From NCBI GenBank assembly GCA_964535215.1, contig CAZHST010000014.1, forward strand, positions 13,297 to 72,401: DNA of 59,105 bases. The letters are read 5' to 3'. The notes under the pieces are model-generated. The model had not been told where the DNA came from and made no database searches. It was given only the letters and a program-made list of their open reading frames with translations. Source of the stretch: an uncultured bacterium. GTDB taxonomy: Bacteria > Methylomirabilota > Methylomirabilia > Methylomirabilales > JACQHM01. Positions 16,264-59,001 of this stretch are shown in pieces (the first letter of the stretch is position 1; the number at the start of each line of letters is the position of its first letter). Both the position numbers and the translations under genes were made by a program.

Positions 16264-16292
16264 CGTTCGGCCAATCGGCAATCCGCTAACGG

Positions 16293-27263: not shown

Positions 27264-27282
27264 CGTCCTCCCGCATCCCTTC

Positions 27283-32156: not shown

Positions 32157-32212
32157 CCCCAAGCTCCCATCCACCGCTGACGTCCGCAGGTCATCGGCAG
32201 TCAACGTCTGGT

Positions 32213-33506: not shown

Positions 33507-33535
33507 TTGACAGCTCCGCCGGGCAACGGTATCAT
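33507..33535 (+). promoter_or_regulatory. predicted sigma70-type promoter for the decarboxylase genes
   Basis: TTGACA – 17 nt – TATCAT in a roughly 300 nt intergenic region, about 30–45 nt upstream of the candidate start codons. Confidence 0.35.
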
Positions 33536-33562
33536 AGCGTTCATGGACGGGGCTTGTCGGCC

Positions 33563-34667: not shown

Positions 34668-35660
34668 CTATCCCACCTCTGACCTTATCCGTTTGAGGCC
34701 ATAACGGGCCAGCGTGGCGAGACCTAGGCTGACCCAGAAAAGCTCCCTGCCCCGTCTCACCAAGCTGAACGTCATCCCTGCCTCCATGGGAAGGGAGAAG
34801 CCAAGGAAGATCAGCATATTCCCCCCCTCTTGGGCTCCTAGAGCTCCTGGGATGACGAAGGCTACGGCTTTGGTGAGGACCGAGAGACCTTGGATAGCAA
34901 AGGCCGTCGGAAGGTCCACGGGCAGCTTTAGAAAGGAGAGCAGCAGGTAGACCTCCAGGCTCTGAACCATCCAACCACCCAGGTGGAACCCCCAGGAGAG
35001 GAGAAAGCTTCGGGCATCTTTGGTGTAAAAGGCGGCGATCTGACGGTCCAGGCTCCGGATCCGTTCCTCCCACCGCTGGAGCCGGGTCTTCAGGAAGGTT
35101 ACGGCTCTGGCAGGCAAGAGAAGCCAGGTGAACAGGCCCTGTCGCTGGAGCACAATCAAGAACGCCATGGCGGGGATCCAAGCGAGGATCAGCACGACTG
35201 AAAAGGTGAGGAAGGGGCTCTTTGCCCCTATCTGGTGTATGGCCAGGATGATCCCGATGACGGTGAAGGTCATCTGGGCCAGGGTCATGGCGGTCTTGGT
35301 GACGACGACAGAGGTCAGGCCCTTCTCAAGGGGGATCTCGTGGGATTTTAGCAAATACGCCTTGACCGGCTCGCCTCCAAGGGAGGCTGAGAAGGTCAGG
35401 TAGTTTACGGCCTCACCGGCCGCTCGGATAAGAAAGAGCCTTGAAAACGGGATTGATGCGCCATCCGCCAACGTCACTCTCCACCCCAGGGTAAAGAAGA
35501 AATAACCGAACGCATACGGCAGGAGGAGGAGGGTCAGCTTCCAGCCCAGGGCCCGAAGGTGGAGGGCGATGGTCAAGGGACCGACCCGGTACACGAGGAA
35601 GGCAAACAAGAGAAGGCCGAGGCTTAGCACCAAAACGTTTAGGGTCTTCGTCTTGATCAC
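34668..35660 (-). CDS. HpnL-like flippase-like membrane protein (UPF0104 family), copy 2
   Basis: Paralog of 32213-33256 with the same N-terminal pattern VLSLGLLLFAFLVYRVGPLTIALHLRALGWKL. It overlaps the upstream fusion gene by 4 nt. Confidence 0.6.
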   Translation of the reverse strand: MIKTKTLNVLVLSLGLLLFAFLVYRVGPLTIALHLRALGWKLTLLLLPYAFGYFFFTLGWRVTLADGASIPFSRLFLIRAAGEAVNYLTFSASLGGEPVKAYLLKSHEIPLEKGLTSVVVTKTAMTLAQMTFTVIGIILAIHQIGAKSPFLTFSVVLILAWIPAMAFLIVLQRQGLFTWLLLPARAVTFLKTRLQRWEERIRSLDRQIAAFYTKDARSFLLSWGFHLGGWMVQSLEVYLLLSFLKLPVDLPTAFAIQGLSVLTKAVAFVIPGALGAQEGGNMLIFLGFSLPMEAGMTFSLVRRGRELFWVSLGLATLARYGLKRIRSEVG

Positions 35661-37141: not shown

Positions 37142-37170
37142 TTGCGAGAATGGGGGCGGGTTGCTACAAT
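37142..37170 (+). promoter_or_regulatory. predicted sigma70-type promoter for hpnN
   Basis: TTGCGA – 17 nt – TACAAT. AGGGGGGGAA follows, then a GTG at 37204. Confidence 0.35.
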
Positions 37171-37203
37171 CTTTTACCTGAAACGCCGTCAGGGGGGGAA
37201 ATC

Positions 37204-39987
37204 GTGCTGGTCCGGTTCCTAAAGTTCATCTATCGGCATCCGCGAAGTGTCATCGTTGTCTCTCTGGCAGTAGCCGTCGTCTCTGTCCTCTATGCCGCGA
37301 CCCACTTGAGCTTTAAGACCAGCCGCCTTGACCTCGTTTCCTCCAAGGACAGGTATAGCCTGCTCCACCGGGAGCATAGCAGGGAGTTTGAGTCCCTGGA
37401 TCGGATTGTCATTGTGGTTCAAAGCCATCATCCAGAGCGGGCCAAGGCCTTCGCCAGCCTGTTGGGAAGACGGTTGGAGGCGGACAGGGAGGATTTCGAA
37501 AAGGTCTTTTATCGAATCGACATCGAACCCTTGAAAAACAGAGGCCTCCTTTACCTATCCGCTGACGACCTCCTCGCCCTCAGGCGGAAGCTCCAAAGGC
37601 ATGCGGAGCTGATCAGAGACCTGGCCGCCTCCCCCACCCTCCCCGGCCTCTTCTCCCTGATCAATCGGGAGATGACCTCGGCGATGATCAGCCATACCTT
37701 CACCGGTTTCTTGCTGGAGGAGGAGCAGGGGGGGGAAAAGGAACCTGTTGATCTCGGCCTGCTGATCTCCATCCTGAGAGCGATGGACGAGTGGGTTGAG
37801 GGTCAACACGCCTACGTCTCCCCCTGGGAGGCCTTTTTCACCAAGGAGAAGTGGAAGACATCGGAGGATGGGTTCCTCTGGTCAGAGGATAAGACGTTTC
37901 TCTTCCTCCTGGTCACCCCCCGGCAGGTCTCCGGGACCTTCGACCGGTTCAGGAAGGCCGTTGAGCGTGTCCGGCAGGAGGTCCGGGAGCTTCGCAAAGC
38001 TTTTCCAGACCTCGAGGTCGGGGTCACGGGGCAATCGGTCCTGGATTCGGATGAGATGGGGGCGGCCCAGCGGGATACCGCCATGGCGGCTTTGATCTCC
38101 CTCGTAGGGGTCGGGCTTCTCTATTTCGTCATGTTCAGAGGGGTCATGAGACCCCTCTTCGCCCTCGTGACGCTGGTCATTGGTCTGGGCTGGTCCATCG
38201 GCTTCACCGCCCTGACGGTGGGGCATCTGAACATCATCACCATGACCTTTGCGCCGCTTTTGATCGGCCTGGGGATTGATTACGGCAGCTACTTTATCGG
38301 TCGGTACATGGAAGAGAGGATGCCAGGGGTTGGGGTGCCTTTCGTCATGGAGCGGACCACCGCTGCCGTTGGGCCGGGGATAGCGGCGACCGCCCTCATC
38401 ACCGCGTTCTCCTTCTTCACCCTCGTCTTCACCGACTTCAAAGGTCTGGTCGAGCTGGGCTTCATCAGCGGGACCGGCATCCTCCTCATCCTGCTCGCCA
38501 CCTTCACGGTTCTTCCGGCGTTCCTCATCCTCTATGATGGCCGGAGAGGGGCAACCTTCGATCTCCGCGGAATGAGGGGCGGTGAGGCCCGCTCCGGCTA
38601 CCTGGAAGGGCTGTACCGCTATCCGCTGGTCACCCTCTCGGCGAGTGCCCTCCTTGTCCTCCTTTCCCTCGCGTTTCTCGGGAGGGTTGGGGCTGACTTT
38701 AACCTCCTCCACATGCAGGCCGAAGGGACCGAGTCCGTTGTCTGGGAGCTTAAGATCCTGGAGAACGCCAAGCGGTCGGCCTGGTTTGCGGTGAGCGTCG
38801 CCGACTCTCTGGAGGAGGTGAGGCGAAGGGAGAAGGCCTTTAAGGCCCTTCCTTTGGTGGCAGGGGTCCAGAGCCTTGCCTCCCTGATCCCTCAGGACCA
38901 GGAGCGGAAGCTCCGCCTTCTCAAAAGCCTCCGTCCCTTCCTGGCCGATATCCCCATCCCTCAGGTCAAGCCCGGGCCCCTGGACCTGGAGGTCCTCCTG
39001 TCCACCTTGGAGAGGATCAAGTTCAAGATGGTAGAGGATGGTGGCGAAACCTGGGACCCCAGGAAGAGGCCACCCGTGGAGGCGATGCGTGAGGTGCGCC
39101 GCCTCATTGACCAGTTCTTAACATGGGCCAAGCAAACGGAGCCTGAGGAAGTCCATCGGGCCCTTCAAGGGTTCGAGAGGGAGATTTTCGGGGACTTGAA
39201 GGACAAGCTGGATTTCCTGAAACGGGGCCTCGACGCCGGACCGGTAACGCTCCAGACCATTCCCCCTGAGCTTAAGGAGCGCTTCGTGGGCAGGACGGGA
39301 AGGTACCGGGTATTGATCTTTCCCGCCGAGAACATCTGGGAGCCTGAGCACCTGGCGAAGTTCGTCCGGGCGATCAGGGCTGTGGACCCTGATGCCATCG
39401 GTGATCCGGTCCTGGGCTTTGAGCACATGCAGGCGATGAAGACGGCCTACAAGAAAGCCGGGTTGTATTCGGTCGTCGGTCTCCTCCTCCTGGTCTTTCT
39501 CACGTTTAAGGAGGTGAAGGCTTCCCTCTTGGCCCTGATCCCTTTGGTCCTTGGTTCCCTGTGGACCTTAGGCTTCATGGGGGCCTTTCAGGTGAAGTTC
39601 AACCTGGCCAACCTTATCGTCCTCCCCTTGATAGGGGCTCCTGGGATCGAAGGTGGCATCATGGTCCTCACCCGTTACCGCGAGGAGAGGACCACCAGGA
39701 AGCTCCCCCTTCCCCTCCCCAAGAGCACCGGGAGGGCCATGGCGTTCTCGGCCTTGTCCACGATGGTCGGATTCGGGAGCTTGATGATCTCCCGCCATCG
39801 GGGGATTTACAGCATCGGCCTCCTCCTCATGGTTGGGGTGGGGTGTATCCTCCTGGCTTCCGTCACCGCCCTTCCTGCCGTCCTGCGACTCCGCTTATCA
39901 AAGCAGGCGAAGGTTTCGGGGGAGGATCAAGAGATGCCTCAAACCGTTGGGGCCAAGGAAGGAGGCTGGAAAGGCAGGGGGGGGTAA
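37204..39987 (+). CDS. hpnN: hopanoid-associated RND-superfamily (MMPL-like) transporter HpnN
   Basis: About 927 aa with two 6-TM bundles (the sterol-sensing-like GxxxD..., second bundle near 39480-39900) and two large periplasmic loops. GTG start after the RBS; the upstream ATG at 37150 lies inside the predicted promoter. Confidence 0.7.
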   Translation: MLVRFLKFIYRHPRSVIVVSLAVAVVSVLYAATHLSFKTSRLDLVSSKDRYSLLHREHSREFESLDRIVIVVQSHHPERAKAFASLLGRRLEADREDFEKVFYRIDIEPLKNRGLLYLSADDLLALRRKLQRHAELIRDLAASPTLPGLFSLINREMTSAMISHTFTGFLLEEEQGGEKEPVDLGLLISILRAMDEWVEGQHAYVSPWEAFFTKEKWKTSEDGFLWSEDKTFLFLLVTPRQVSGTFDRFRKAVERVRQEVRELRKAFPDLEVGVTGQSVLDSDEMGAAQRDTAMAALISLVGVGLLYFVMFRGVMRPLFALVTLVIGLGWSIGFTALTVGHLNIITMTFAPLLIGLGIDYGSYFIGRYMEERMPGVGVPFVMERTTAAVGPGIAATALITAFSFFTLVFTDFKGLVELGFISGTGILLILLATFTVLPAFLILYDGRRGATFDLRGMRGGEARSGYLEGLYRYPLVTLSASALLVLLSLAFLGRVGADFNLLHMQAEGTESVVWELKILENAKRSAWFAVSVADSLEEVRRREKAFKALPLVAGVQSLASLIPQDQERKLRLLKSLRPFLADIPIPQVKPGPLDLEVLLSTLERIKFKMVEDGGETWDPRKRPPVEAMREVRRLIDQFLTWAKQTEPEEVHRALQGFEREIFGDLKDKLDFLKRGLDAGPVTLQTIPPELKERFVGRTGRYRVLIFPAENIWEPEHLAKFVRAIRAVDPDAIGDPVLGFEHMQAMKTAYKKAGLYSVVGLLLLVFLTFKEVKASLLALIPLVLGSLWTLGFMGAFQVKFNLANLIVLPLIGAPGIEGGIMVLTRYREERTTRKLPLPLPKSTGRAMAFSALSTMVGFGSLMISRHRGIYSIGLLLMVGVGCILLASVTALPAVLRLRLSKQAKVSGEDQEMPQTVGAKEGGWKGRGG

Positions 39988-40035: not shown

Positions 40036-40776
40036 TCAGGACCCCTCGTCCAGCTTTCTCCCCAGGGCCCTTGCCTGCTCCAGTTCTTCCGGCGTGTCAA
40101 TGTCCATCCAGGGAAGCCCCCCGGTGAGGGAATAGCCGACCGGGACCCCCCGGGCGATCAAGGCTTCAATGGCTGCCGTGAAATAGAGATCCGTTCTCGC
40201 CTGCTGGATGAATCCTCTCATCTCCTCAAAGAAGAGGCGGCTGCCTCGTCCTGAGAATCTGGCGATGCCGATGAAGGTTCCCGTGGCTTCACCGGGGAGG
40301 ATGGATTTGCTGACGGCGGTGATCCGGTCCCCTTGGGAGGTCACCTTCATCGTCTCCCCGAGGATCTCGCGATCAATGACCAGGCAGATATCTCCTGGAA
40401 ATGCCAGGCATCCAGGGAGGATCGCCTTGTGAAAGAGGACATCGGCATGGAGGATGAAACAGGGCAGGCCTTCCACTTGCTCCCGCGCGATCCATGCTGA
40501 ATAGAGATTGTTGGTCTCGGCGTAGAGAGGGTTGTGGAGGAGGGTAAGGCGAAAGGGGTAGCGGCGAGCAGCCCTAGCGGCAAAGCGGTGGATGGCATCA
40601 GCCCGATGGCCGGTGACGATCAGGACCTCGGCGACTCCCGATCCCGCCAGGGCGTCAAGTTGGTATTCCAACAGGGACCTTCCCCCAACATCCAAAAGGC
40701 ACTTCGGCGTGTCGGCCGTCAGCGGGTGAAGCCTGGTGGCCCTCCCCGCTGCGAGGATCAGGGCCTTCATGACCAC
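40036..40776 (-). CDS. sugar-/phosphobase nucleotidyltransferase (LicC/PntC-like cytidylyltransferase family)
   Basis: MKALILAAGRATRLHPLTADTPKCLL is the canonical GxGxRL nucleotide-binding loop. Confidence 0.7.
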   Translation of the reverse strand: MVMKALILAAGRATRLHPLTADTPKCLLDVGGRSLLEYQLDALAGSGVAEVLIVTGHRADAIHRFAARAARRYPFRLTLLHNPLYAETNNLYSAWIAREQVEGLPCFILHADVLFHKAILPGCLAFPGDICLVIDREILGETMKVTSQGDRITAVSKSILPGEATGTFIGIARFSGRGSRLFFEEMRGFIQQARTDLYFTAAIEALIARGVPVGYSLTGGLPWMDIDTPEELEQARALGRKLDEGS

Positions 40777-41094
40777 CTCCCAAAGCTTAGAGACCTGTCA
40801 GGGGGGTCCCATCTTATGTACCACGGTTTTGCCGAAAAGCAAGGAAAAAATCCCGGGTCGAGGATCGGAGGCGTTTGACAAACCCCCGGGCCTACGCTAT
40901 CATGCTCCCCGATCTCCAGTCCCATGGCATTTTTTGAACCATGGGGCCCCAGCCGACGTATCTGGAGGGAGGGAACAATCTGGGAAGAGGTGGTGTTCTG
41001 TAAGGGAGGGGTGGGTCAGCCTGGGAGGCCCATGGAGGGGGAGCGAGCCGGTGGGATTTATCATCGGGGTCCCTGGTTCCGAAAGGAGGGTTCG

Positions 41095-42501
41095 ATGAAC
41101 TGGAGGCGAGGACCGAGGGTGGTGCTAGGACTCCTGGGAGCTTTTGGGCTCTTTGCCTTTCCCCCTCCCCTGAAGGCGCAAGAGGTGCCGAGAACAGGGA
41201 CGGTCATCCTTGACCTCAAGCAGGCCATTGAAATGGCGGTCATGACAAGCCCTGACATCAAGCGGGTGCAGGCGGGTGTGGACGCTGCCCAGGCCAAGAA
41301 GGATCAGGCCGATGCCGGACGACTCCCCCAGTTCGAGTTCACGAGCGTCTTGGGCCCCTCGCCCGAGGCCCGGGTCTTCACCACGGAATTGGGCGATGTC
41401 CGATCAACCGATCGAACGGACCGGCCAACCATCAACGGGATCTTCGGGCGGAGTGACTTTACGTTGATCCAGCCCTTGTACACCTTTGGTAGGATCTCGG
41501 GGCTCCGGGAGGCCGCCGGCCATGGGGTTCGGGTCGAGCAGGCGCGGGTGGAAGAAAAGACCTCGGAGGTCATCTTGAAGGTCAAGGAGGCCTATTACAG
41601 CCTCCTCCTCGGGATGGAGCTCCAGAACCTCCTCCTCGATATCCAGGAGCAGTTGGAGCGGGCCCTGGAGAAGGTGGAACGGATCCTGGAGGCTGGGGCG
41701 CCCGGGGCGGATGAGGTGGATCGGTACAAGCTCAGGACCTTCCGGGGGGAGCTTCAGCGGAACCTGAATGAGGTGGCGAAGGTGATTGATGTGGCCACCG
41801 CCGGGCTCAAGACCTTGACCGGCTTGGCGCCCGATCAGGTGGTCGAGCCAGCGGTGAAAACGCTGGAACCGGATCCCAGGCCCGTCCCTCCTCTCGAGCA
41901 GGCCCTTAAGGAGGCCCAGGAGCGGCGGCCGGAGTTCGTTCAGATCCGCGAAGGCCTGTTGGCCACCCAGGCCTTGGTGGCGGCCGCGAGGGCAGAACGC
42001 TATCCCCAGCTGTTCATGGCCGTCACAGGTTCCGTGTCCCGGGCCACCAACCGTACCCCCCTCACCAACCCGTTCGTCTTCGACGAGCTGAATCATACGG
42101 TGGTAGTCCCGCTGATCGGCTTCAAGTGGCACTTCGACTTCGGCATCCTTGCCGGCAAGGTTCGAGAAGCCCAGGCCGAGCATCAGAAGGTGGTTCACGC
42201 CAAGGAACTGGCGGAGCAGGGGGTCCCCTTTCAGGTGAGAAAAGCCTACCGGGAGCTGGAGGAGGCCCGGCAGAGCATCAAGGCGACGGAGGAGGCGTAT
42301 GCCAACGCGAGGAGGTGGCTGGTGGCCGCGGTGGCCAACTTCGATTTGGGCGTGGGCGAGGCCAAGGAGGTAGCCGATGCCCTTGTCGCCTTCGTCAAGA
42401 TGCGGGCGGAGAATTTCAAGGCGATCTTTAACTACAACATGGCCCTTGCCGCCCTGGACCAGGCGACCGGCAAGGCCGTCCAAGAAGTGGGAAGACCCTG
42501 A
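41095..42501 (+). CDS. TolC-like outer membrane efflux protein
   Basis: Signal peptide MNWRRGPRVVLGLLGAFGLFAFPPP, two OEP repeats with coiled-coil segments. RBS GAAAGGAGGG upstream of this ATG; the longer ORF from 40924 is unlikely. Confidence 0.7.
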   Translation: MNWRRGPRVVLGLLGAFGLFAFPPPLKAQEVPRTGTVILDLKQAIEMAVMTSPDIKRVQAGVDAAQAKKDQADAGRLPQFEFTSVLGPSPEARVFTTELGDVRSTDRTDRPTINGIFGRSDFTLIQPLYTFGRISGLREAAGHGVRVEQARVEEKTSEVILKVKEAYYSLLLGMELQNLLLDIQEQLERALEKVERILEAGAPGADEVDRYKLRTFRGELQRNLNEVAKVIDVATAGLKTLTGLAPDQVVEPAVKTLEPDPRPVPPLEQALKEAQERRPEFVQIREGLLATQALVAAARAERYPQLFMAVTGSVSRATNRTPLTNPFVFDELNHTVVVPLIGFKWHFDFGILAGKVREAQAEHQKVVHAKELAEQGVPFQVRKAYRELEEARQSIKATEEAYANARRWLVAAVANFDLGVGEAKEVADALVAFVKMRAENFKAIFNYNMALAALDQATGKAVQEVGRP

Positions 42502-42561
42502 GGGGAAGGCAACGGGGGAGGCGTGGCTCCGGGAACACGGGGAGAGAGGAGGTTTTTGAGG

Positions 42562-43197
42562 ATGGGACGACGATGGGGGCACACCAAGAGGATGGCTTGG
42601 GCAGGGTCCTGGTTGGGGATCCTCTTCCTGGCTCAAGGGTTCCTTTCCACCGCCGTGGCCGGGGAACCCTTGGAACAGGTCAAGGCAACCCTGGAGGCTG
42701 CTTCGGCGATCCTGGGGGACCCGAAGCTTGCTGGGCCGGAAAAGGAGGAGGAGCGGAGGGAGGCGGTCAAGAAGATCATCTTCGATCGCTTTGATCTTCG
42801 GGAGATGGCGGCCCGCTCCCTGGGGGATCAGTGGGCCAAGCTGACCCCATCCCAACAGGAGGAGTTTGTCCAGGTCTTTGGCGACCTCTTCCAAAGGTCC
42901 TACACCCGCCTGGTGCTCAGGTTTCTCCCGGAAAGGCGGACCCTTTATGGGCAGGAGAGGCTGGATGGGTCAACGGCCCTGGTGAAAACGACCCTGGTCA
43001 GTCAGCGGAACGAGCGGTTGCCGGTTGATTACCGACTCATCAAGAAGGGGCCCCGGTGGGCCTTTTTCGACGTGATCATTGATGGGGTCAGCATCGTTGG
43101 GAACTATCGAACCCAGTTCAGCAAAATTATCCGAAACTCCTCCTATGAGAGCCTCGTCCGCCGCATGAAACTCAAACAGGAACAGGAGTCCTTTTAG
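42562..43197 (+). CDS. MlaC/Ttg2D-family lipid-binding periplasmic protein (HpnM-like)
   Basis: Signal peptide, then IIFDRFDLREMAARSLGDQWAKLTPSQQEEFVQVF...FFDVIIDGVSIVGNYRTQF, the toluene-tolerance Ttg2D/MlaC fold. Next to the hpnN/TolC genes. Confidence 0.65.
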   Translation: MGRRWGHTKRMAWAGSWLGILFLAQGFLSTAVAGEPLEQVKATLEAASAILGDPKLAGPEKEEERREAVKKIIFDRFDLREMAARSLGDQWAKLTPSQQEEFVQVFGDLFQRSYTRLVLRFLPERRTLYGQERLDGSTALVKTTLVSQRNERLPVDYRLIKKGPRWAFFDVIIDGVSIVGNYRTQFSKIIRNSSYESLVRRMKLKQEQESF

Positions 43198-43240: not shown

Positions 43241-44470
43241 TTACCGCTCCCGGTAGAAGATCAGCAACACGCCGAAGGCGATCACCAGGAACCGCCAGAG
43301 GAGCTTGGGGATGGAGGAACCAGGGTCCCGGTCCCAGAGGAGCTTTGTTCCCCCGATGAGGATGGCCAGGAGGCCCATCGCGGCGTGTTGGAGATAGATC
43401 TTGAAGCCGGAAAGGCCCCAGGTGAGCTGCTGGGTGATGAAGGCGAAAAGGTGTCCAGACTTACCGTGGCCCCCATGAGAGACCAGGAGGGCCCCTGAGA
43501 CAATGGCCAGACCAGGGAAGAGGTAACCCCAGGCCGGGTGGAGGAGCCATCCCTCCTTCCTGAAAAGCTCGATCAACCCGATGGCCAACATGGCGAGGCC
43601 GAGGACCTTATGCTGCCAGACCGAGGGGATGGCCAACCCTTCCAGGAGGGGGATCGGGCCTAGCGGCCAGACCTGCGGGTCACTCCGGACGAGGACCCAG
43701 AGGCTTAAGCCGATGGCTCCAAGGGGCCAGAGGGATTTCAGCCAGCGACGGCCCGGGAGGAAGACCTCAATCACGGCCAGGATCCCGACCAGCAGGAGGA
43801 GGAACCCCGAGGAGCGGTGGTTAAACTCGGAGAACGCAATCTGCCCCGGGGTCCGTTGCCAGCCCCCGTGCTCGTGGCCTCCTCCCGGGAGGCCCTCGCT
43901 CCCCCCATAGGAGGCGAGGAACGGGTTGGTCTCCGCGAAAAGGCCGCTCGGGTTGGGGAACCAGGCCCAGACGTGGAGACTCCAGAGACTGGGATGCCAG
44001 ACTTCGAAGGGAGCTCCCGTTTTGGGATGGGTCTTTGGGCAGAGATCGGCGGCGGAGGCTTCCTCCTCGCTCCCGTCAGCGTAATGACAACTGGCTTTAT
44101 GCCGGAACCAGGGAGCCCTGGGAAAGAAGGTGCGGGGAGGGGTTGGGCCTCCGGCCACGTACTCCACGCCGGCCAACTGCCATTGACCCCTCTCCTCCAC
44201 GTAGAGGAGCATCTGGGGCCGGGTGAGGTCGAAGTCGGTGATGGAAGGGTTGAAGTAGTGATAGCCATGGAGGCGGATCATGCCGGTCATCTGGCGGTAC
44301 CCATGCTTCCTGGCCTGATCGATGTCGAGGAACTGGATGGTCGCCGTGCGGATCTGGGCGACGATCTGGCTCAGATCCCCTTCAGCAGCCTGGCCGGGGA
44401 GCACCCCCCAGACCAAGCCCCCGACGATCAAGCCCCCAAGCCAGCGCTTCATTTCGTTCCTCCTTTCCAT
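43241..44470 (-). CDS. membrane protein of unknown function (N-terminal periplasmic domain + C-terminal polytopic domain)
   Basis: 409 aa. Signal or anchor helix, about 200 aa soluble region, then about 6 TM helices with His/Gly-rich loops (HGGHGKSGH). Confidence 0.4.
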   Translation of the reverse strand: MERRNEMKRWLGGLIVGGLVWGVLPGQAAEGDLSQIVAQIRTATIQFLDIDQARKHGYRQMTGMIRLHGYHYFNPSITDFDLTRPQMLLYVEERGQWQLAGVEYVAGGPTPPRTFFPRAPWFRHKASCHYADGSEEEASAADLCPKTHPKTGAPFEVWHPSLWSLHVWAWFPNPSGLFAETNPFLASYGGSEGLPGGGHEHGGWQRTPGQIAFSEFNHRSSGFLLLLVGILAVIEVFLPGRRWLKSLWPLGAIGLSLWVLVRSDPQVWPLGPIPLLEGLAIPSVWQHKVLGLAMLAIGLIELFRKEGWLLHPAWGYLFPGLAIVSGALLVSHGGHGKSGHLFAFITQQLTWGLSGFKIYLQHAAMGLLAILIGGTKLLWDRDPGSSIPKLLWRFLVIAFGVLLIFYRER

Positions 44471-45050: not shown

Positions 45051-46373
45051 ATGGAGCTGGACTCCCATCGGAACCGGCGATCCCTGGAGGAACGGCCCAG
45101 GTTGGCTGTGGGGGTGCTCGTTGACCTAAAGTGGCGTCCTGAGGCCGGTGGACAGGTCAAGTGCTGGGAGCGCTTGGCCAGGGCCGCCGCCGCGTTCAAA
45201 GATCAGGTGGACCTGACCATCCATTTCCTGGGGGATCAGGAGGAGAGGGACAGCATCTCCGAGAACGTGCGCTACATTACCCACCCGCCCCTCCTCAGTA
45301 CGGGACGGCTTCGCTTCCTGGGCCAGATCCCGGAACATACCGACCTCGCCCCTTTGCACCCGAGGCTTCTTCCCTACCTGGGCTGCTACCAGGTGATCCA
45401 CACCACCGACGCCTTCTTCGCCTTCGCCAAAACGGCCCTTGCCTTCACGAGGCGATCCCGGGTGCCGTTGGTCACTTCGATCCACACCGATACCCCCCGG
45501 TATACCCGGCTCTACACCCAAGCGGTCATCCGCCGGCTCTTCAAAGAGGGGCGATTGGCTCGCTTCCTCCTCGACCGGTTCCGTTTCGACGAACGCTGTT
45601 ACGTCTCCACGTTGCGGAAGCTCGACCGGTATCTCGAGCGGTGCGACTGGATCCTGGTCTCGAACCGGGAGGATTGGGAACGGGTTTCAAGGGTGTTGCC
45701 GGAAAAGCGGATTTCTTTCCTCCGGCGGGGGATTGACAAGGAGGCCTTCCACCCCCGGTGGCGGCATCGGGCGAAGCTGGAGGCGGCCTTCGGCATCCCC
45801 CCGGATCGGTTCCTGTTGCTCTTTGTGGGGCGGGTGGACCAGGGGAAGAACGTGATGACCCTGGCCCAGGCGGCCAAGCGGTTACTGGATCAGGGGGAGC
45901 CTATCCATGTCATGATCGTTGGGGAGGGGAGCCAGAAAGAGGCGGTCCGCACCCTCCTTGGTCCTCATGTCACCCTTCCAGGGGTGGTCTCGCCCTCGAC
46001 CCTCGCCTGGCTGTATGCCAGTGCCGATCTCTTCGTGTTCCCTTCGGAAATCGAGGTCTGCCCCAACGTGGTGATCGAAGCAAAGGCGTCAGGGCTTCCC
46101 GTCCTGGTCTCGGCAAAGGGGGGGGCGGCCCAGTGTCTCAAACAGCCCGGCGTGGACGGAGTCATCGTCGAGGCGAACAACCCTGCCCTCTGGGCCCGGG
46201 CTGTTGCCTTCTTGAGGAGGGATTTAACGCTCCGGGTCCGGATGGGGCAAGAGGCGAGGCGGCATATCGAAACGGAGTGGCCTTCGTGGGAGGAGGTCCT
46301 GGCTCAGGATCTCCTCCCGGTCTGGCAGACGGTGGCCAAGAAAGGCCAGGTCTTCTCGGATCCACACGCCTGA
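45051..46373 (+). CDS. glycosyltransferase family 4 (GT-B, group 1) protein
   Basis: The C-terminal domain has the EX7E-type motif region (FVFPSEIEVCPNVVIEAKASGLPVLVS). Exact start uncertain. Confidence 0.75.
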   Translation: MELDSHRNRRSLEERPRLAVGVLVDLKWRPEAGGQVKCWERLARAAAAFKDQVDLTIHFLGDQEERDSISENVRYITHPPLLSTGRLRFLGQIPEHTDLAPLHPRLLPYLGCYQVIHTTDAFFAFAKTALAFTRRSRVPLVTSIHTDTPRYTRLYTQAVIRRLFKEGRLARFLLDRFRFDERCYVSTLRKLDRYLERCDWILVSNREDWERVSRVLPEKRISFLRRGIDKEAFHPRWRHRAKLEAAFGIPPDRFLLLFVGRVDQGKNVMTLAQAAKRLLDQGEPIHVMIVGEGSQKEAVRTLLGPHVTLPGVVSPSTLAWLYASADLFVFPSEIEVCPNVVIEAKASGLPVLVSAKGGAAQCLKQPGVDGVIVEANNPALWARAVAFLRRDLTLRVRMGQEARRHIETEWPSWEEVLAQDLLPVWQTVAKKGQVFSDPHA

Positions 46374-46390
46374 GCCACCCGGAGGGGGAA

Positions 46391-47506
46391 ATGGGGAAGC
46401 CGGTCTCGGTCCTGAAACAGGTCAGGGCAGGATGGCAGCTCCTGGCGGGCGGTGGGCCGGGGATCTGCAACATCGCCATCACCAATGCCTGTAACGCCAG
46501 GTGTGACTTCTGTAACTACGCGTACGATAAACCGTTTGTCACCAAGAAGGTCATGGTGGGCTTTCAGGAGCTATGCGAGGCCATTGATATCCTTTACGAG
46601 AGAGGGATCCGGTACCTCACTTTTTCAGGGGGCGAGCCCCTCCTCCATCCGAGGCTCAAGGATATGGTGGCGTACGCGGTGGAGAAGAGGATGAGGCCCT
46701 CCATCTGCACTAACGGCTTCCTCCTTACGCCCCGGATGATTCGCGACCTCAAGGCCAGCGGCCTTCAGACGCTCTTCATCTCCATTGATGCCACCTCATC
46801 CCAGGAGCACGAGCAGAACCGAGGGCTCCCTGGCGTCTGCGGGCGGATCAAGGAGGCAAACCATGAACTCAAAGGCCTCGGGATCAAGACCGTGGCCTCG
46901 GTGACCATCAACAAATTGGTTAAGGACTTTGCCCGACTCCTCCGCTTTCTTCAAGAGCTTGGGTTCGAGACCGTGACCTTCTCCTACCCGAAGCGGGTCC
47001 TGGGCTCGTCCTCCCTGGTCTTTTCCGAGACCTCGCCCCTTGTCGATTACACCCCTGAGGAGCTGATCGTGGCCTTTGAGGAGATCAGGCGGCTCAAGGG
47101 TCAGTTCCGCATCCTGAACCCAGGGGAATCCCTGGCGGAGATGGTCCGGTTCCTCAAGAGAGAGCCGCAGCGCTTCCCCTGCTTCGGGGGGTACAAGTAC
47201 TTCTTCCTGGATTGGAACCTGGACGTCTACCGGTGCGACTTCTGGCCGACGCGGATGGGCTCCATCTATGAGTTCCGGGAGACGCCGTTCATTCGGGACA
47301 ACTGCACCCTCTGCATGAGCGATTGCTACCGGGACTCTAGCGTCTTGCTGCATGTGGCCGTCTCCCTGGGGGATGCCATCGGCCACCTGAGGCAGGGCCA
47401 CCTGTTAAGGGCCATGCGTGCCCTCGTGACCCGGAGCAACGCCTGGTCTCTCAAGGCCCTGGTCCAGGAGTGGGGAACGCTTAGGAGCCTGGCGAAGCGG
47501 AGGTGA
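46391..47506 (+). CDS. radical SAM protein with C-terminal Cys-rich (SPASM/twitch-like) region
   Basis: ITNACNARCDFCNY CxxxCxxC cluster near the N-terminus. Additional cysteines CTLCMSDC near the C-terminus. Confidence 0.75.
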   Translation: MGKPVSVLKQVRAGWQLLAGGGPGICNIAITNACNARCDFCNYAYDKPFVTKKVMVGFQELCEAIDILYERGIRYLTFSGGEPLLHPRLKDMVAYAVEKRMRPSICTNGFLLTPRMIRDLKASGLQTLFISIDATSSQEHEQNRGLPGVCGRIKEANHELKGLGIKTVASVTINKLVKDFARLLRFLQELGFETVTFSYPKRVLGSSSLVFSETSPLVDYTPEELIVAFEEIRRLKGQFRILNPGESLAEMVRFLKREPQRFPCFGGYKYFFLDWNLDVYRCDFWPTRMGSIYEFRETPFIRDNCTLCMSDCYRDSSVLLHVAVSLGDAIGHLRQGHLLRAMRALVTRSNAWSLKALVQEWGTLRSLAKRR

Positions 47507-48294
47507 ACCCCTCGGTGTTCGGGAAGCGAATCCTCCTGCTCATCCCCCACCCGGACGACGAGGTGGTGGGGTGCTCGGCAGCGGTAGGGCGGGCGCGAGT
47601 CCAGGGGGCGGAGATTTTTGGGTTTTACCTGACCACGGGGGTCCCGCCTCGGGAGGCGCTCTGGTGGTGGCAGCGGAGAGGCTACCCACGTCTCGTCGAG
47701 CGACGCCGAAAGGAGGCCGAGCAGGTGGCGGCGCTCCTCGGGATCGAGGCCGTCGAGTTCCAGGAGATCCCCTCCCGGACGTTAAAAAGCTTTCTCGGTC
47801 CAACCCGGGAGAAGCTCATCAGGGCAATTCGGGGGCATCAGATCGACACCCTCTGGGCTCCGACCTACGAGGGGGGGCACCAGGATCACGATGCCGCCAG
47901 CTTCCTCTCGAGTACGCTTAAAGGCTCCGTCCAGGTCTGGGAGTTCAGCGAGTACCACTACTTCGGGGGAAGGGTGCGGTGTCACGAATTTTTCGCCCCC
48001 AACGGGACAGAATGGGTTCTTCTCCTGGACGACGGGGAGCGGGAGGTGAAGCGGAAGGCCCTCGCCCTTTACCGGTCGGAACGGAAGAACCTTCGGCACA
48101 TCGAGATTGCCCGCGAGGCCTTCCGCCCGTTGGCCAGCTACGACTACCGTCAGCCCCCGTATCGGGGAAAGCTGTTCTACCAGCGCTTTCAATGGGTTCC
48201 GGCCCATCCCCGGATCGATCCCTGTCGGCCTGAAGCCGTGTGTCAGGCCTTTGACCGCTTCATGTTAGAGGGGGGAGACCGGGGAGAGGGATAG
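47503..48294 (+). CDS. PIG-L/LmbE family N-acetylglucosaminyl deacetylase
   Basis: LLIPHPDDEVVGCSAAV zinc-binding motif. 4-nt overlap with the radical SAM gene. Confidence 0.75.
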   Translation: MNPSVFGKRILLLIPHPDDEVVGCSAAVGRARVQGAEIFGFYLTTGVPPREALWWWQRRGYPRLVERRRKEAEQVAALLGIEAVEFQEIPSRTLKSFLGPTREKLIRAIRGHQIDTLWAPTYEGGHQDHDAASFLSSTLKGSVQVWEFSEYHYFGGRVRCHEFFAPNGTEWVLLLDDGEREVKRKALALYRSERKNLRHIEIAREAFRPLASYDYRQPPYRGKLFYQRFQWVPAHPRIDPCRPEAVCQAFDRFMLEGGDRGEG

Positions 48295-48322: not shown

Positions 48323-50059
48323 CTATTCCTTGATCTCGGCCCAAGCCCGCTGGTAGTCCTCGAAGGTGTTGATCTCCATCCAGCCTTTGTAGATCTCGAC
48401 ACAGGAGACCTTGACCCCTTCGTCGATCATCGCCTGAAGGAGGTCGGTCAACGAGGCCTTCTCGATGGATTCAGCCTCATAGAACCTCTGATGCCGGTAT
48501 CGGTCCAGGGCCCGTCGGTAGGCTTCTTTGAGGCTTTGAGCCCCTTTCTCCGAGAACATCGCCATGCCGATGAACTCCCCGTGGGCCTCGTCAGGGTCGA
48601 TGTCATGACCGATCCTGACCACGGTGTTTTCCCCTTCAGGGGGAAGGAAGCGGTAACCATGAACCGGGGGGGTTTTCATCACGACCAGGGCCGGCTTTGC
48701 CTTGTACGTCGGAGGGTCGATGCCGTCCCGACGATTATGGTACCAGGCCCGATCCACGGCCAGCACGATGTCCCCTTTGCTCTTCAAGAGCTTCTCCAAG
48801 ACCCCCCGGTCAAAGATGATGTCCCCGTAAAGGAAGATAAAACGACCCTCGATCTCAGGTTCAGCGCAGAAGAGAGAATACAGGATGTGGGTTTCCTGGA
48901 ACCGGTCATTCTCATAGTAGCGGATATTTGGGTAATCGATGCTTTCCTTCTTATACCCCCGGACAACGGCGATCTCCTTGATGGAACACTCGTTGAGCCT
49001 GGCGATCTGGCGCTCCAGGATGGTTTTCCCTTTGATGTCCAGCATCGTCTTGGGCCGGTCCTTGATCAGCGGGAGGAGTTCCTTCTCGAATCCGGCCGCG
49101 AGGATGATGGCCTTAACCTTCTCCGCGCCCACGGGGAGGAACCGTTCTTCCCGATCTTTTAGCTCACTCACCCCTACCAGGTCGTAGACCTTTTCCAAAG
49201 GGACGATCCGGGCGGAGACGGCCTCCGCCGAGCCTTTCTCCTTCAAGAGGTGGAGGGTCTCCTCCATGGCCTTGATGGCCGCCCGGATGGCCTGATTGGC
49301 GAAGATGACGACCTTGAACCCCGACTCCTGAAGCTCCTCCAGGGTCACCGAGGGGAACAGGGTCGGAACGACAACCAGGGGTGCGGTTCCACTCCAGACC
49401 CTGGCGAACTCGCGAAGCTCGTGGAAAGAGCTGGCCTTGGAGTGGACGAGGATGGCGTCAGCGCCGGCCTCAGCGTACGCCTTGGCCCTCTTCAAGGCCT
49501 CTTCCATCCCCCAGCCGGCGATCAACGCCTCGGTCCTGGCAATGATCACAAAATCCCCCGTTCTCTGGACCTCCTTGGCCGCCCTGATCTTTCCGACATG
49601 TTCCTCGATGGAGACAAGCTCCCGGCGGACTCCCGGGTAAAAGCTACACCGCTTTGGAAAGACGTTGTCCTCGATGCAGATCCCTGCAATTCCCGCCGCT
49701 TCGAACTCGATGGTGGTCCGCATGACGTTGATGGCGTTGCCATACCCATCATCGCAATCGGCGATGACAGGAATCGAGACGGCCTGATTGATCTTCTTGA
49801 CGATCTCCAGGTTCTCGGTCATGGTTAAAAGCCCCGCGTCGGGGAGACCCATCTGGGCTGTGGAGATCCCGAAGCTCGAGGTCCAGACCGCATCAAAGCC
49901 GGCCCGCTCGATGAGTTTGGCACTGATGGCATCATGGGCCCCGGCCACCAAGATCATCCCAGGCCGTCGCAGGAGCTCTCGGAGCCTGATGGTTTTCTGC
50001 ACGGGTGAAGACCTCCTTCTGGCCAACGAAGCGGACGAACCCTCCGAGGTGACCCACAA
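48323..50059 (-). CDS. bifunctional phosphoenolpyruvate phosphomutase (PepM) / nucleotidyltransferase fusion
   Basis: The N-terminal roughly 300 aa (ILVAGAHDAISAKLIERAGFDAVWTSSFGIS...IADCDDGYG...GICIEDNVFPKRCSF) matches the PEP mutase branch of the ICL/PEPM family (EDKxFPKxNS-type, no KKCGH). The C-terminal roughly 250 aa is an NTP-transferase (KAIILAAGFEKELLPLIKDRPKTMLDIKGKTILE). Confidence 0.8.
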   Translation of the reverse strand: MWVTSEGSSASLARRRSSPVQKTIRLRELLRRPGMILVAGAHDAISAKLIERAGFDAVWTSSFGISTAQMGLPDAGLLTMTENLEIVKKINQAVSIPVIADCDDGYGNAINVMRTTIEFEAAGIAGICIEDNVFPKRCSFYPGVRRELVSIEEHVGKIRAAKEVQRTGDFVIIARTEALIAGWGMEEALKRAKAYAEAGADAILVHSKASSFHELREFARVWSGTAPLVVVPTLFPSVTLEELQESGFKVVIFANQAIRAAIKAMEETLHLLKEKGSAEAVSARIVPLEKVYDLVGVSELKDREERFLPVGAEKVKAIILAAGFEKELLPLIKDRPKTMLDIKGKTILERQIARLNECSIKEIAVVRGYKKESIDYPNIRYYENDRFQETHILYSLFCAEPEIEGRFIFLYGDIIFDRGVLEKLLKSKGDIVLAVDRAWYHNRRDGIDPPTYKAKPALVVMKTPPVHGYRFLPPEGENTVVRIGHDIDPDEAHGEFIGMAMFSEKGAQSLKEAYRRALDRYRHQRFYEAESIEKASLTDLLQAMIDEGVKVSCVEIYKGWMEINTFEDYQRAWAEIKE

Positions 50060-58410: not shown

Positions 58411-58482
58411 GCTGGCGTAGCTCAGCGGTAGAGCGGCTGATTTGTAATCAGCGGGTCGGGGGTTCAAATCCCTCCGCCAGCT
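58411..58482 (+). tRNA. tRNA-Thr (anticodon TGT)
   Basis: GCTGGCG acceptor pairs with CGCCAGC. Anticodon arm GCTGA-TTTGTAA-TCAGC. T-arm GGGGG-TTCAAAT-CCCTC. Confidence 0.8.
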
Positions 58483-58547
58483 TACCGCTCATCCGGTGTA
58501 GGGTTCCCGCGGTTGGCTCGGGGCATAAGGGTGGGAACCCAAAGAGA

Positions 58548-58633
58548 GGGGAGATACCCAAGTGGCCAAAGGGGGCAGACTGTAAATCTGCTGGCGGATG
58601 CCTTCGGGGGTTCAAATCCTCCTCTCCCCACCA
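58548..58633 (+). tRNA. tRNA-Tyr (anticodon GTA)
   Basis: GGGGAGA acceptor, anticodon arm GCAGA-CTGTAAA-TCTGC, long variable arm, encoded CCA. Confidence 0.85.
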
Positions 58634-58747
58634 AATATTGGGAAACGGCATTCAGGTCGAGGACAGAAAAGCCTGGCAACCTCATCGATCTATCCCACGT
58701 TATCTCCTCTGGATGATACGTCTCTTGCACACCGGAGCACTCCTGGG

Positions 58748-58823
58748 GCGGGAATAGCTCAGTGGGTAGAGCGTCAGCCTTCCAAGCTGAGGGTCGCGGG
58801 TTCGAATCCCGTTTCCCGCTCCA
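58748..58823 (+). tRNA. tRNA-Gly (anticodon TCC)
   Basis: GCGGGAA acceptor, anticodon arm TCAGC-CTTCCAA-GCTGA, encoded CCA. Confidence 0.85.
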
Positions 58824-58928
58824 TCAGGAAAGCTGCCCCAGGCATTCGTTGGGTTTCCGAAAACCATTGTCCTGGGCTGAAGGCTGATGGTGGATAGCTA
58901 AGCGCTTAATGATAAAGAGCCCACGTGG

Positions 58929-59001
58929 CGCAGTCGGTAGCGCACCTCATTGGTAATGAGGAGGTCACCGGTTCAATCCCGGTCGTGGGCTCCCCTTCCG
59001 A
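58929..59001 (+). tRNA. tRNA-Thr (anticodon GGT)
   Basis: GCCCACG acceptor, anticodon arm CCTCA-TTGGTAA-TGAGG. Confidence 0.85.

Follow-up and report, generated by a model that had tools for sequence, protein, structure and literature searches.

A PEP mutase-like fusion protein with a non-canonical gating loop as the probable entry enzyme of a phosphonate pathway for membrane lipids at a hopanoid locus

Architecture of the fusion gene

The window, by which we mean the whole stretch of 59,105 nucleotides that was analysed, carries on its minus strand a gene that joins a PEP mutase (PepM)-like domain to a PntC-fold domain. The features of this gene are as follows.

48323–50002, minus strand: fusion gene with PepM-like and PntC-fold domains, 559 aa from GTG 50002, stop codon TAG at 48323–48325
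50012–50018, minus strand: Shine–Dalgarno sequence AAGGAGG, 9 nt upstream of the in-frame GTG at 50000–50002
49172–49984, minus strand: PEP mutase/isocitrate lyase superfamily domain; best family PepM (TIGR02320), best PDB match PepM 5UNC
49640–49675, minus strand: gating-loop signature IEDNVFPKRCSF, standing where PepM has EDKX5NS
48326–49120, minus strand: PntC/LicC-fold nucleotidyltransferase-like domain; AF2 pLDDT 82, best PDB fold match PntC 6PD1
49076–49102, minus strand: nucleotide loop LAAGFEKEL, aligned by sequence with its LicC counterpart LAAGLGTRL

The mechanically predicted reading frame (48323–50059, minus strand) comprises 578 aa and starts at TTG 50059. Because of the spacing of the Shine–Dalgarno sequence, the length of the fusion homologues (554–559 aa) and an identical protein already called as a 559-aa gene (P0272), GTG 50002 is most likely the true start. 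A weak sigma70-like match lies ahead of the gene at 50098–50070 (minus strand), and an Rfam scan near the gene returned no riboswitch or other Rfam element.

Pfam placed PEP_mutase (PF13714) at residues 26–270 of the 578-aa frame (E 7e-64, 216 bits) and NTP_transf_3 (PF12804) at residues 317–436 (E 1e-10). A database search retrieved 2,325 homologues of the fusion at E ≤ 1e-20, and the best 120 all had the two-domain architecture (120/120). The gene is therefore a genuine two-domain fusion, far beyond chance. An earlier note on this DNA had described it as a PEP mutase fused to a cytidylyltransferase-type domain, and both Pfam and the homologue architecture bear this out as PepM-like and cytidylyltransferase-fold domains. 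The note had also stated that PepM–PntC fusions were already reported, which is documented (PMC6697681, PMC8942020). Since approximately 60% of motif-positive Ppm enzymes are such fusions (Rice 2019, PMC6697681), the architecture observed here is ordinary. Domain order and length are the same as in the Ppm–PntC proteins (PF13714 + PF12804) of phosphonolipid-type 'CDP-OH' clusters, with homologous C-terminal domains (PMC6697681; PMC8942020).

The mutase domain and its gating loop

The top-scoring family model for the mutase domain was that of PepM (TIGR02320), with 281.7 bits, which is below the curated equivalog cutoff of 319.55. Six other fusions of the same variant type scored 280–306 bits, compared with 341–397 bits for four canonical fusions, and PepM was the best-matching family throughout. 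The two groups also differ at the gating loop, which is EDNxFPKRCSF in the variant clade and EDKX5NS in the Ppm of 'CDP-OH' clusters. The EDKX5NS criterion reportedly goes back to Yu et al. 2013.

In the window the loop reads EDNVFPKRCSF and does not match the EDKX5NS signature, with Cys119 (codon 49646–49648) at the position of Mytilus Asn122 and Asn113 at that of Lys116. The EDK motif that the earlier note proposed to look for is thus absent, in addition to the sub-cutoff score. The catalytic residues that it proposed to check are largely in place: W44, D58, D85, D87, E114, D115, K120, S123, R159 and H190 are invariant across 159 variant and 38 canonical fusions. EDN..CS occurs in all 120 closest homologues and in 159/159 clade members, and K116N, N122C, L48F and Tyr at 125 (Mytilus numbering) are fixed in the same 159. 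Motif states of related loci were read from the alignment.

Compared with characterised PepMs (Mytilus edulis 1M1B/1PYM; Streptomyces 5UNC), the window domain aligns without gaps through the active site (290 bits to 5UNC) and keeps the metal-binding and catalytic residues except two. It differs from them by the four substitutions above, by its place outside the 5UNC–1M1B clade and by its fusion to a second domain. Most authors ascribe the choice between mutase and hydrolase reactions to the residue at the Asn122 position, and in PPH a change of Asn to Thr accompanies the change of reaction (PMC7916636). PPH (Variovorax, 2DUA/2HJP) shares the fold and was the second-best family match, but it keeps EDK together with Thr and nests within the PepM crown, whereas the window protein has EDN and Cys and falls outside. 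Lyases such as methylisocitrate lyase and petal death protein (K[KR]CGH) share P-K-[KR]-C with the window protein, and its Cys aligns with their catalytic Cys (PKKCGH); the window protein, however, has 'SF' in place of 'GH', and the similarity is much lower (137–162 bits).

We rejected three other identities for the domain. For methylisocitrate lyase, the loop has KRCSF rather than K[KR]CGH and the prpB score of 212 bits is below the cutoff of 354; for carboxyPEP mutase, TIGR02319 gave 169.8 bits against a cutoff of 420; and for PPH, position 122 is Cys rather than the Thr of the EDK..DTS loop, with a TIGR02321 score of 236.6 bits against 374.4. In neighbour-joining trees, lyase-type proteins split off from the mutase domain in 195/200 bootstraps. 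Clustering with methylisocitrate lyase or carboxyPEP mutase, which the earlier note had named as the result that would count against a PEP mutase, was therefore not what we found. The variant clade lay outside the crown of characterised PepM and PPH proteins, falling inside it in only 9/200 bootstraps, and PPH nested within the PepM crown in 136/200. The exact seven-member 'fused EDN-RCS' group of a single neighbour-joining tree recurred in only 16/200 bootstraps and was not robust. By sequence, the mutase domain represents a large sister lineage of characterised PEP mutases with a remodelled gating loop. As the clade is outside the PepM/PPH crown, its function cannot be bracketed phylogenetically.

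Gene neighbourhood in the window and in relatives

Genes elsewhere in the window were annotated as follows.

32213–33256, minus strand: second LPG_synthase_TM/HpnL-like membrane protein
33431–34072, plus strand: TPP decarboxylase alpha subunit (TPP_enzyme_N); NCBIfam phosphonopyruvate decarboxylase 126 bits, sulfopyruvate decarboxylase alpha 123.7 bits
34069–34644, plus strand: TPP decarboxylase beta subunit (TPP_enzyme_C); phosphonopyruvate decarboxylase 193.7 bits, sulfopyruvate decarboxylase beta 176.3 bits
34668–35660, minus strand: LPG_synthase_TM/flippase-like (HpnL-like) membrane protein, which recurs beside the fusion in relatives
35657–36994, minus strand: membrane protein (445 aa) of the CDP-alcohol phosphatidyltransferase family, whose N-terminal region resembles a degenerate nucleotidyltransferase; candidate head-group transferase
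40036–40776, minus strand: stand-alone LicC/PntC-like nucleotidyltransferase, 246 aa, with the near-canonical loop AAGRATRL...PK; orthodox candidate for phosphonate cytidylylation
43241–44470, minus strand: conserved membrane protein without a Pfam family, sharing 61% identity with the gene that directly follows the fusion in the closest relative (L086)
45051–48294: GT4/radical-SAM/PIG-L trio, the third gene assigned to the PIG-L family by Pfam scan only

The true start of the decarboxylase alpha subunit is probably later than 33431. The decarboxylase lies 13.7 kb from the fusion, with an MMPL/HpnN-like exporter, an OEP and an MlaC gene in between, in agreement with the distance of about 14 kb and the intervening hopanoid export genes given in the earlier note. 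The phosphonate module is dispersed over about 17 kb through the hopanoid locus, and an identical arrangement recurs on an independent contig. No aminotransferase was found anywhere in the 59,105-nt window. The earlier note had also seen in the fusion a tie between the glycosyl/radical-SAM trio and the lipid genes, but adjacency is all that links the trio to the fusion. An identity of the GT4/radical-SAM pair with HpnI and HpnJ is not supported by the best NCBIfam matches listed, which include neither model and comprise generic GT4 and radical-SAM families with scores far below their cutoffs.

We compared 41 variant-clade genome loci. The variant occurs in complete genomes such as those of Sorangium cellulosum So ce56 (NC_010162), Minicystis rosea (CP016211) and Nitrospira sp. 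(OZ224218). In most of the 41 loci a split TPP decarboxylase follows the fusion within 4–85 nt. The same operons encode an AEP aminotransferase scoring above the TIGR03301 (PhnW–AepZ) cutoff in Nitrospira, Auribacterota, a Chlamydiae MAG and a deltaproteobacterium, and CDP-OH transferases and flippase-like genes recur. No second mutase homologue was present in any variant locus, within about 10 kb. A separate nucleotidyltransferase with a GxGxR..PK loop accompanies the fusion in 35/41 variant loci and in 20/39 canonical ones. In one relative (L084), no pathway gene adjoins the fusion. These counts leave out three loci with wrong-frame reading-frame picks (L022, L028, L039) and one truncated locus (L065), and among clusters of neighbouring reading frames only those with Pfam or NCBIfam support were used, many others being antisense shadow frames of high-GC DNA.

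Fusions with the canonical motif sit in the same kind of module, which is a described phosphonolipid-type cluster family (PMC8942020). Like the 'CDP-OH' clusters, the module combines Ppd, an AEP aminotransferase, a second nucleotidyltransferase, a CDP-alcohol transferase and a membrane protein. In two relatives (L001, L002) the phosphonate genes again lie within or beside squalene and hopanoid genes. The same holds for PEP mutase clusters linked to hopene cyclase in Roseomonas (PMC8776678) and Nitrosococcus (GCF 731, PMC8942020); those clusters have an accepted PepM, in contrast to the motif-negative mutase and the dispersed module of about 17 kb in the window.

Taken together, the recurrence of the fusion in operons with a decarboxylase, CDP-alcohol transferases and, in some cases, AEP aminotransferases, and with no other mutase, suggests that the variant most likely functions as a PEP mutase whose gating loop is non-canonical.

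The fused C-terminal domain

When the AF2 model of the C-terminal domain was compared with the PDB, the top fold match was PntC 6PD1 (E 4e-12, TM 0.65–0.68). The best sequence match was LicC 1JYK, and the sequence alignment to 6PD1 spans residues 4–128. The domain shares the fold, the sequence affinity and the lysine of the PK motif with PntC (Tde1415, 6PD1/6PD2) and LicC, but it has GFEKE where these have GXG(T/S)R, and it is about 35 residues longer than LicC. Glu thus replaces both the second Gly and the catalytic Arg (Arg15), and the downstream PK (DRPK, Lys25 equivalent) is kept. The equivalent of Arg15 is Arg in none of the fusions (0/159 variant, 0/38 canonical); that of Lys25 is Lys in 157/159 members of the variant clade. 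For comparison, the PntC consensus is GXG(T/S)RX4-8PK, and R15A PntC has less than 10% activity (PMC6697681). The fused domains of the two clades resemble one another more than they do the separate nucleotidyltransferases, and form their own 'Ppm-fused' subfamily.

These features bear on the first alternative to our reading, in which the protein is a canonical bifunctional PepM–PntC whose fused domain works as the cytidylyltransferase for the downstream phosphonate and contributes to the pull on flux. We consider this doubtful, although it is the strongest of the alternatives. It has in its favour the predicted PntC-like fold, the retention of Lys25 and of conserved Asp residues under strong purifying selection, the residual activity of R15A PntC and the precedent of Fom1, an active Ppm-fused cytidylyltransferase, albeit of a different Pfam family (PMC6697681). 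However, the GXG(T/S)R loop is absent from every member of both fused clades, Lys25 itself is lost in many canonical-clade fusions, the co-occurring orthodox nucleotidyltransferase would be redundant, and no Ppm-fused PF12804 domain has been assayed, according to PMC6697681. The idea put forward in the earlier note, that flux is pulled by a fused domain acting on the downstream phosphonate, is therefore unsupported, as the Arg is never present and a separate nucleotidyltransferase with an intact loop occurs in the window and in most relatives. The usual thermodynamic pull on PEP mutase comes from the decarboxylase. Rather than the main cytidylyltransferase, the C-terminal domain is more likely an accessory module that binds nucleotide or product or has a regulatory or structural role, or else a transferase of weak or atypical activity. 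With Lys25, its conserved Asp residues and many other positions strongly conserved, the domain may still be catalytic.

Alternative reactions for the mutase domain

A second alternative is that the mutase-like domain catalyses another reaction, either Cys-based P–C or C–C cleavage as in lyases, or a rearrangement to a different 3-substituted pyruvate that the decarboxylase would use. The failure of the EDKX5NS signature and of the curated PepM cutoff fits such a reading, as does the replacement of Asn122 by a Cys aligned with the lyase catalytic Cys in PKKCGH. Four co-fixed substitutions in loop and pocket point to a selected change rather than drift, the branch lies outside the PepM/PPH crown, and the decarboxylase resembles sulfopyruvate decarboxylase almost as closely. 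Against this, R159, H190 and S123, which bind the phosphoryl group, do not vary, and the Cys is not followed by the 'GH' of the lyases. The operons contain an equivalog-grade AEP aminotransferase and a Ppd-like decarboxylase, no further enzyme that would supply phosphonopyruvate lies within about 10 kb, and the same type of module surrounds fusions with the canonical motif. A biosynthetic operon, moreover, would hardly begin with a hydrolase or lyase; PPH is catabolic and is not known from such operons. We therefore regard another reaction as unlikely.

A more far-reaching version, to which we give similarly little weight, concerns the clade as a whole. Its members would either form the C–P bond with the assistance of the Cys, in contrast to known PepMs, whose dissociative mechanism depends on Asn122, or make a different 3-substituted pyruvate. 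The product would feed a new class of membrane-lipid head groups, carried on hopanoid-associated lipids in the window and in Nitrospinota relatives, and the fused PntC-fold domain would act as a non-catalytic regulator sensing nucleotide or product.

Finally, although the window module is dispersed and without an aminotransferase and both domains deviate from their family signatures, a decaying or inactive pathway relic, left behind beside the hopanoid genes when the operon broke up, is very improbable, given the intact reading frame with its strong Shine–Dalgarno sequence, the identical arrangement on an independent contig, and deviating residues that do not vary among 159 sequences of several phyla, a sign of selection rather than decay.

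Proposed pathway

In our preferred reading, which we consider probable from the sequence and its context, the product of the gene catalyses the opening step of a pathway to membrane-lipid phosphonates. The mutase domain would convert PEP to phosphonopyruvate, and the split TPP decarboxylase would draw the reaction forward by converting phosphonopyruvate to phosphonoacetaldehyde. In relatives, an AepZ-type aminotransferase would then yield 2-aminoethylphosphonate; given its absence from the window, this step may be encoded elsewhere, or the aldehyde may take another route. Activation with CMP would probably fall to the stand-alone nucleotidyltransferase (40036–40776), the CDP-alcohol phosphatidyltransferase (35657–36994) could move the head group onto a lipid alcohol, and the flippase-like proteins may translocate the product.

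The points that speak against the main reading are the failed EDKX5NS signature and equivalog cutoff, the lyase-like Cys at the Asn122 position, the place of the clade outside the PepM/PPH crown, a decarboxylase that is only marginally of the phosphonopyruvate type, the gap of 13.7 kb and the lack of an aminotransferase in the window, and the relative (L084) with no adjoining pathway gene.

Implications for phosphonate producers

The censuses of phosphonate biosynthesis that we consulted all demand a perfect match to EDKX5NS (PMC6697681, PMC8942020, PMC12723261), so that the variant clade has been discarded from inventories as 'presumed non-Ppm'. A literature search on phosphonolipids or PepM in Nitrospira, Sorangium and myxobacteria found nothing relevant. 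Current genome surveys thus overlook a widespread clade whose members, Nitrospira, Sorangium and others among them, probably produce phosphonate lipids. We lean towards a motif-negative lineage that catalyses the ordinary PEP mutase reaction, with Nitrospira, Sorangium, Acidobacteriota and Planctomycetota as hidden phosphonolipid producers. Nitrospira is a globally important nitrite-oxidising and comammox genus, and Sorangium and other Polyangiaceae are producers of natural products.

The absence of the Arg from all examined Ppm-fused PF12804 domains, and the usual presence of a separate enzyme, question the commonly assumed mutase–cytidylyltransferase bifunctionality of about one-third of Ppm enzymes. 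If the clade makes phosphonopyruvate, the censuses miss a broad set of producers, among them Nitrospira, Sorangium/Polyangiaceae, soil Acidobacteriota and Planctomycetota. Asn122 and Lys116, which are treated as PepM hallmarks, would then be dispensable, with a bearing on the mechanism and on the divergence of mutases, hydrolases and lyases, and phosphonolipids would be commoner in membranes than has been thought.

A two-domain gene with a probable GTG start

The minus strand of the window carries an open reading frame at 48323..50059 in which Pfam recognizes PEP_mutase (E 7e-64) and then NTP_transf_3 (E 1e-10), confirming the fusion of a PEP mutase with a cytidylyltransferase-type domain claimed in the earlier note. 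The TTG at 50059 is merely the earliest possible start codon; a weak sigma70-like match stops 11 nt short of it. Because a strong Shine-Dalgarno sequence (AAGGAGG) lies 9 nt 5' of an in-frame GTG at 50002, homologues measure 554-559 aa and one gene call of the identical protein has 559 aa, the best placement of the gene is 48323..50002 (559 aa). Its nearest database relatives are Nitrospirota/Nitrospiria MAG proteins. The fusion architecture in itself is ordinary.

The mutase domain has an intact scaffold and a remodelled loop

TIGR02320 (PepM) was the top curated subfamily model for the mutase domain, with 281.7 bits against a curated cutoff of 319.55; phosphonopyruvate hydrolase (PPH) reached 236.6, methylisocitrate lyase 212 and carboxyPEP mutase 169.8 bits. 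Among solved structures, Streptomyces PepM 5UNC matched best (290 bits); PPH and Mytilus PepM came next. Gap-free alignments to these structures revealed that the signature loop reads IEDNVFPKRCSF instead of the EDKxFPKxNSx of PepMs, placing Asn at Mytilus Lys116 and Cys at Asn122, so the EDK motif that the earlier note proposed to check is not conserved. In the lyase motif PKKCGH, the position of this loop Cys is occupied by the catalytic Cys. Since EDN[VIL][FY]PKRCS[FL] was present in 120/120 closest homologues, this is not a sporadic mutation.

We aligned 159 members of this variant clade (EDN..CS loop) with 38 canonical-motif fusions. Neither group varies at W44, D58, D85, D87, E114, D115, K120, S123, R159 or H190, leaving the metal- and phosphoryl-binding scaffold intact. 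The gating loop is remodelled and fixed in the variant clade: L48F, K116N, N122C and Tyr at 125 occur in all 159 members and are essentially missing from the canonical group. TIGR02320 separates the two cleanly, giving 341-397 bits to canonical fusions but 280-306 to variant fusions drawn from six phyla.

We searched 1.84 billion representatives exhaustively and obtained 1,442 proteins at E<=1e-30; the 150 nearest representatives showed diverse loop types.

Loop types among the 150 nearest representatives
EDN..[RK]CS[FL]Y, fused and stand-alone proteins
EDN..RNS, intermediates
EDK..NS, canonical
EDK..DTS, PPH-type
EDQ..KRCGH, lyase-type

This set (P0121-P0270) includes stand-alone proteins of ~290-310 aa with an EDN..RCS[FL]Y loop, and its loop types form a graded series from lyase-type KRCGH to PepM-type K[TV]NS.

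We removed the loop columns before building an NJ tree, in which lyase-type proteins split from all others in 195/200 bootstrap replicates, and so the clustering of the N-terminal domain with methylisocitrate lyase, which the earlier note had named as evidence against its reading, was not observed. Only 9/200 replicates placed the window protein within the smallest clade joining the two characterised PepMs; for PPH the figure was 136/200. The variant clade is thus an outgroup to the characterised PepM/PPH crown, a position from which phylogenetic bracketing cannot give its activity. The exact seven-member clade of the single NJ tree was dropped, having appeared in only 16/200 replicates.

The fused nucleotidyltransferase-like domain has a degenerate nucleotide loop

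The C-terminal 265 residues matched LicC best in sequence, and PntC was also matched. Among PDB folds, an AlphaFold model of this domain (pLDDT 82, pTM 0.84, with low confidence at the nucleotide loop) matched PntC 6PD1/6PD2 best. PntC and LicC share the consensus GXG(T/S)RX4-8PK, and Ala substitution of PntC Arg15, Lys25 or Lys153 leaves <10% activity (PMC6697681). In the window protein the loop reads G-F-E-K-E, with Glu in place of Arg; Arg at the Arg15 equivalent was found in 0/159 variant and 0/38 canonical fusions, while Lys25 is retained in 157/159 of the former against only 20/38 of the latter. An orthodox paralogue lies nearby: the stand-alone nucleotidyltransferase at 40036..40776 has an AAGRATRL...PK loop and LicC as its best PDB match. 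Across relatives, a separate enzyme with the full GxGxR..PK consensus was present in 35/41 variant loci; of the other six, four come from contigs that are short or truncated, one lacks a separate ORF and the last has an ORF without this consensus. These observations leave unsupported the activating role that the earlier note gave the fused domain, which probably does not serve as main cytidylyltransferase of the pathway.

Fused C-domains of variant and canonical proteins align over their full length at a median of 132 bits, compared with 58 bits against the separate enzymes, and so make up a distinct 'Ppm-fused' subfamily. Being well conserved, the domain must have some function. The enzymes characterised in PMC6697681 are Ari1348 and the PntC-AEPT fusion Tde1415, neither with a Ppm-fused PF12804 domain.

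The putative phosphonate module is scattered through a hopanoid locus

A hopanoid locus has the fusion at its right edge and the remaining phosphonate genes scattered through it.

Hopanoid locus genes in the window
21732..22874, SQS_PSY
23775..24575, HpnG-like phosphorylase
24551..26443, squalene-hopene cyclase
27283..28230, polyprenyl synthase
29090..30103, minus strand, HpnA-like NAD-dependent epimerase/dehydratase
31158..32204, HpnH
37150..39987, MMPL/HpnN
40924..42501, OEP
42523..43197, MlaC

Phosphonate module genes in the window
32213..33256 and 34668..35660, HpnL-like flippase proteins
33431..34644, split decarboxylase
35657..36994, minus strand, CDP-OH transferase
40036..40776, stand-alone nucleotidyltransferase
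43241..44470, minus strand, conserved membrane protein
48323..50002, minus strand, fusion

The window's TPP decarboxylase scored best as phosphonopyruvate decarboxylase (126 + 193.7 bits), with sulfopyruvate decarboxylase narrowly behind. No aminotransferase was found anywhere in the window. The hopanoid association is repeated in relatives L001 and L002 (62% identity); a Nitrospira locus, L082, has a compact module, and hopanoid genes are absent. Hopene-cyclase-linked PEP mutase genes in Roseomonas and Nitrosococcus have been discussed as possible 'terpene-phosphonates' (PMC8776678, PMC8942020), precedents that make the association recurrent.

The HpnA-like gene is 53-62% identical to module-adjoining genes in L001, L002, L004 and L063, the last two having it beside a phosphonate module otherwise without hopanoid genes. 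Instead of serving hopanoid synthesis, it may be a phosphonate module gene, perhaps encoding a reductase that acts on phosphonoacetaldehyde.

The GT4, radical-SAM and PIG-L trio (45051..48294, plus strand) is tied to the fusion by adjacency only, an arrangement that recurs on an independent contig (L081). HpnI/HpnJ were absent from the best matches listed for the GT4 and radical-SAM genes; PIG-L was assigned by Pfam. The GT4 resembles GlcNAc-transferring enzymes (GlcN-PG synthase, MshA, BshA), and its pairing with a PIG-L deacetylase suggests a GlcN-lipid or GlcN-inositol type of product.

The 409-aa membrane protein at 43241..44470 belongs to no Pfam or NCBIfam family. It combines an N-terminal soluble part, with many conserved Cys, His and Trp residues, with a C-terminal multi-TM part weakly resembling LiaF-TM. 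Its 61% identity with the gene lying just 3' of the fusion in the closest relative (L086, 2791..4131) makes it a conserved module member in this lineage. The CDP-OH transferase has an unannotated N-terminal region of ~210 aa (…ALIVPPPGG…HPLAGVPVFIRIILAAQRAGVHRFLVLSG…) that looks like a second, degenerate nucleotidyltransferase-type domain in an IPCT/DIPPS-like architecture; the equivalent domain in L003/L004 has an intact AAGxGKRL loop.

A DUF6282 amidohydrolase-like gene (22703..23749, plus strand) and a Caroten_synth-family gene (26457..27314, minus strand) are interspersed with those for squalene synthase, HpnG and the cyclase. No family was found for the 293-aa ORF at 28196..29077.

Other features of the window

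A mechanically called ribose-phosphate pyrophosphokinase ORF (16130..17425, plus strand) contains a tRNA gene (16293..16364, plus strand); as its Pfam domains begin at residue 125, the true prs start lies after the tRNA. Four further tRNAs cluster at the right end (58411..58991, plus strand). Branched-chain polyamine synthases are typical of thermophiles, and the one at 6448..7527 (plus strand; BpsA_C, E 6e-76) gives a hint of how the source organism lives. The 709-aa protein at 51..2180 (plus strand) joins a CHASE2 sensor, an adenylate/guanylate cyclase domain and a C-terminal PilZ, an unusual combination since PilZ normally binds c-di-GMP.

The module is conserved across phyla

Scanning at one genome per species yielded 80 loci. 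The variant loop occurred in 41 (Nitrospinota, Auribacterota, a Chlamydiae MAG, Sorangium/Polyangiaceae including So ce56, Acidobacteriota and Planctomycetota) and the canonical loop in 39 (Scalindua, Omnitrophota, Verrucomicrobia, Alphaproteobacteria and Steroidobacteraceae). In most variant loci a split TPP decarboxylase follows the fusion by 4-85 nt, and in 12 a class-V aminotransferase comes next. The aminotransferases of Nitrospira sp. Kam-Ns4a, Auribacterota, the Chlamydiae MAG and a deltaproteobacterium score above the curated cutoff of PhnW-AepZ, the 2-aminoethylphosphonate (AEP) aminotransferase (363-373 vs 360.8 bits). The rest of the module consists of CDP-alcohol phosphatidyltransferases and LPG_synthase_TM flippase-like proteins. 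Synteny with Ppd-like, AepZ, CDP-OH transferase and flippase-like genes is thus conserved; L003 and L004 have co-directional operons of fusion, decarboxylase alpha and beta, AepZ, nucleotidyltransferase-CDP-OH transferase and flippase-like protein. The module is the same as that of the canonical Ppm-PntC 'CDP-OH' clusters of Li & Horsman, whose lipid product is still uncharacterised (PMC8942020). No second mutase homologue was found in any locus examined, and the simplest interpretation has the variant enzyme producing phosphonopyruvate.

In one Nitrospiria relative (L084, P0005, 63% identity; 2604..6712) no pathway gene adjoins the fusion, which has RadC on one side and an alanine-dehydrogenase/PNT-family gene and an acylphosphatase on the other. 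The module has therefore been broken up repeatedly within Nitrospirota.

Proposed pathway and implications

The mutase domain would convert PEP to phosphonopyruvate, and decarboxylation to phosphonoacetaldehyde would supply the thermodynamic pull. Amination to AEP, by a gene outside the window, or another fate might follow. The stand-alone nucleotidyltransferase would perform CMP activation and the CDP-alcohol transferase would transfer the product to a lipid alcohol, possibly diacylglycerol or a hopanoid polyol, for flipping and export. The earlier reading is thereby supported in part: this keeps the PepM-like two-domain fusion and gives up activation by the fused domain. Taken as a whole, a motif-divergent mutase making phosphonopyruvate in a lipid-phosphonate pathway is an explanation we consider moderately probable.

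Rice et al. discarded 26,231 PF13714 proteins without EDKXXXXXNS as 'presumed non-Ppm', only 22 of them fusions (PMC6697681), and the motif was also demanded by Li & Horsman 2022 (PMC8942020) and a December 2025 genome-mining study (PMC12723261). These filters leave out the variant clade. Because most authors, according to a review, ascribe the PepM/PPH difference to Asn122Thr (PMC7916636), Cys at position 122 is mechanistically meaningful. A clade-fixed non-canonical loop in the mutase of complete AEP-type operons is a genuine, testable deviation from a supposed defining feature of PepM, and the fused domain's non-canonical loop is likewise one.
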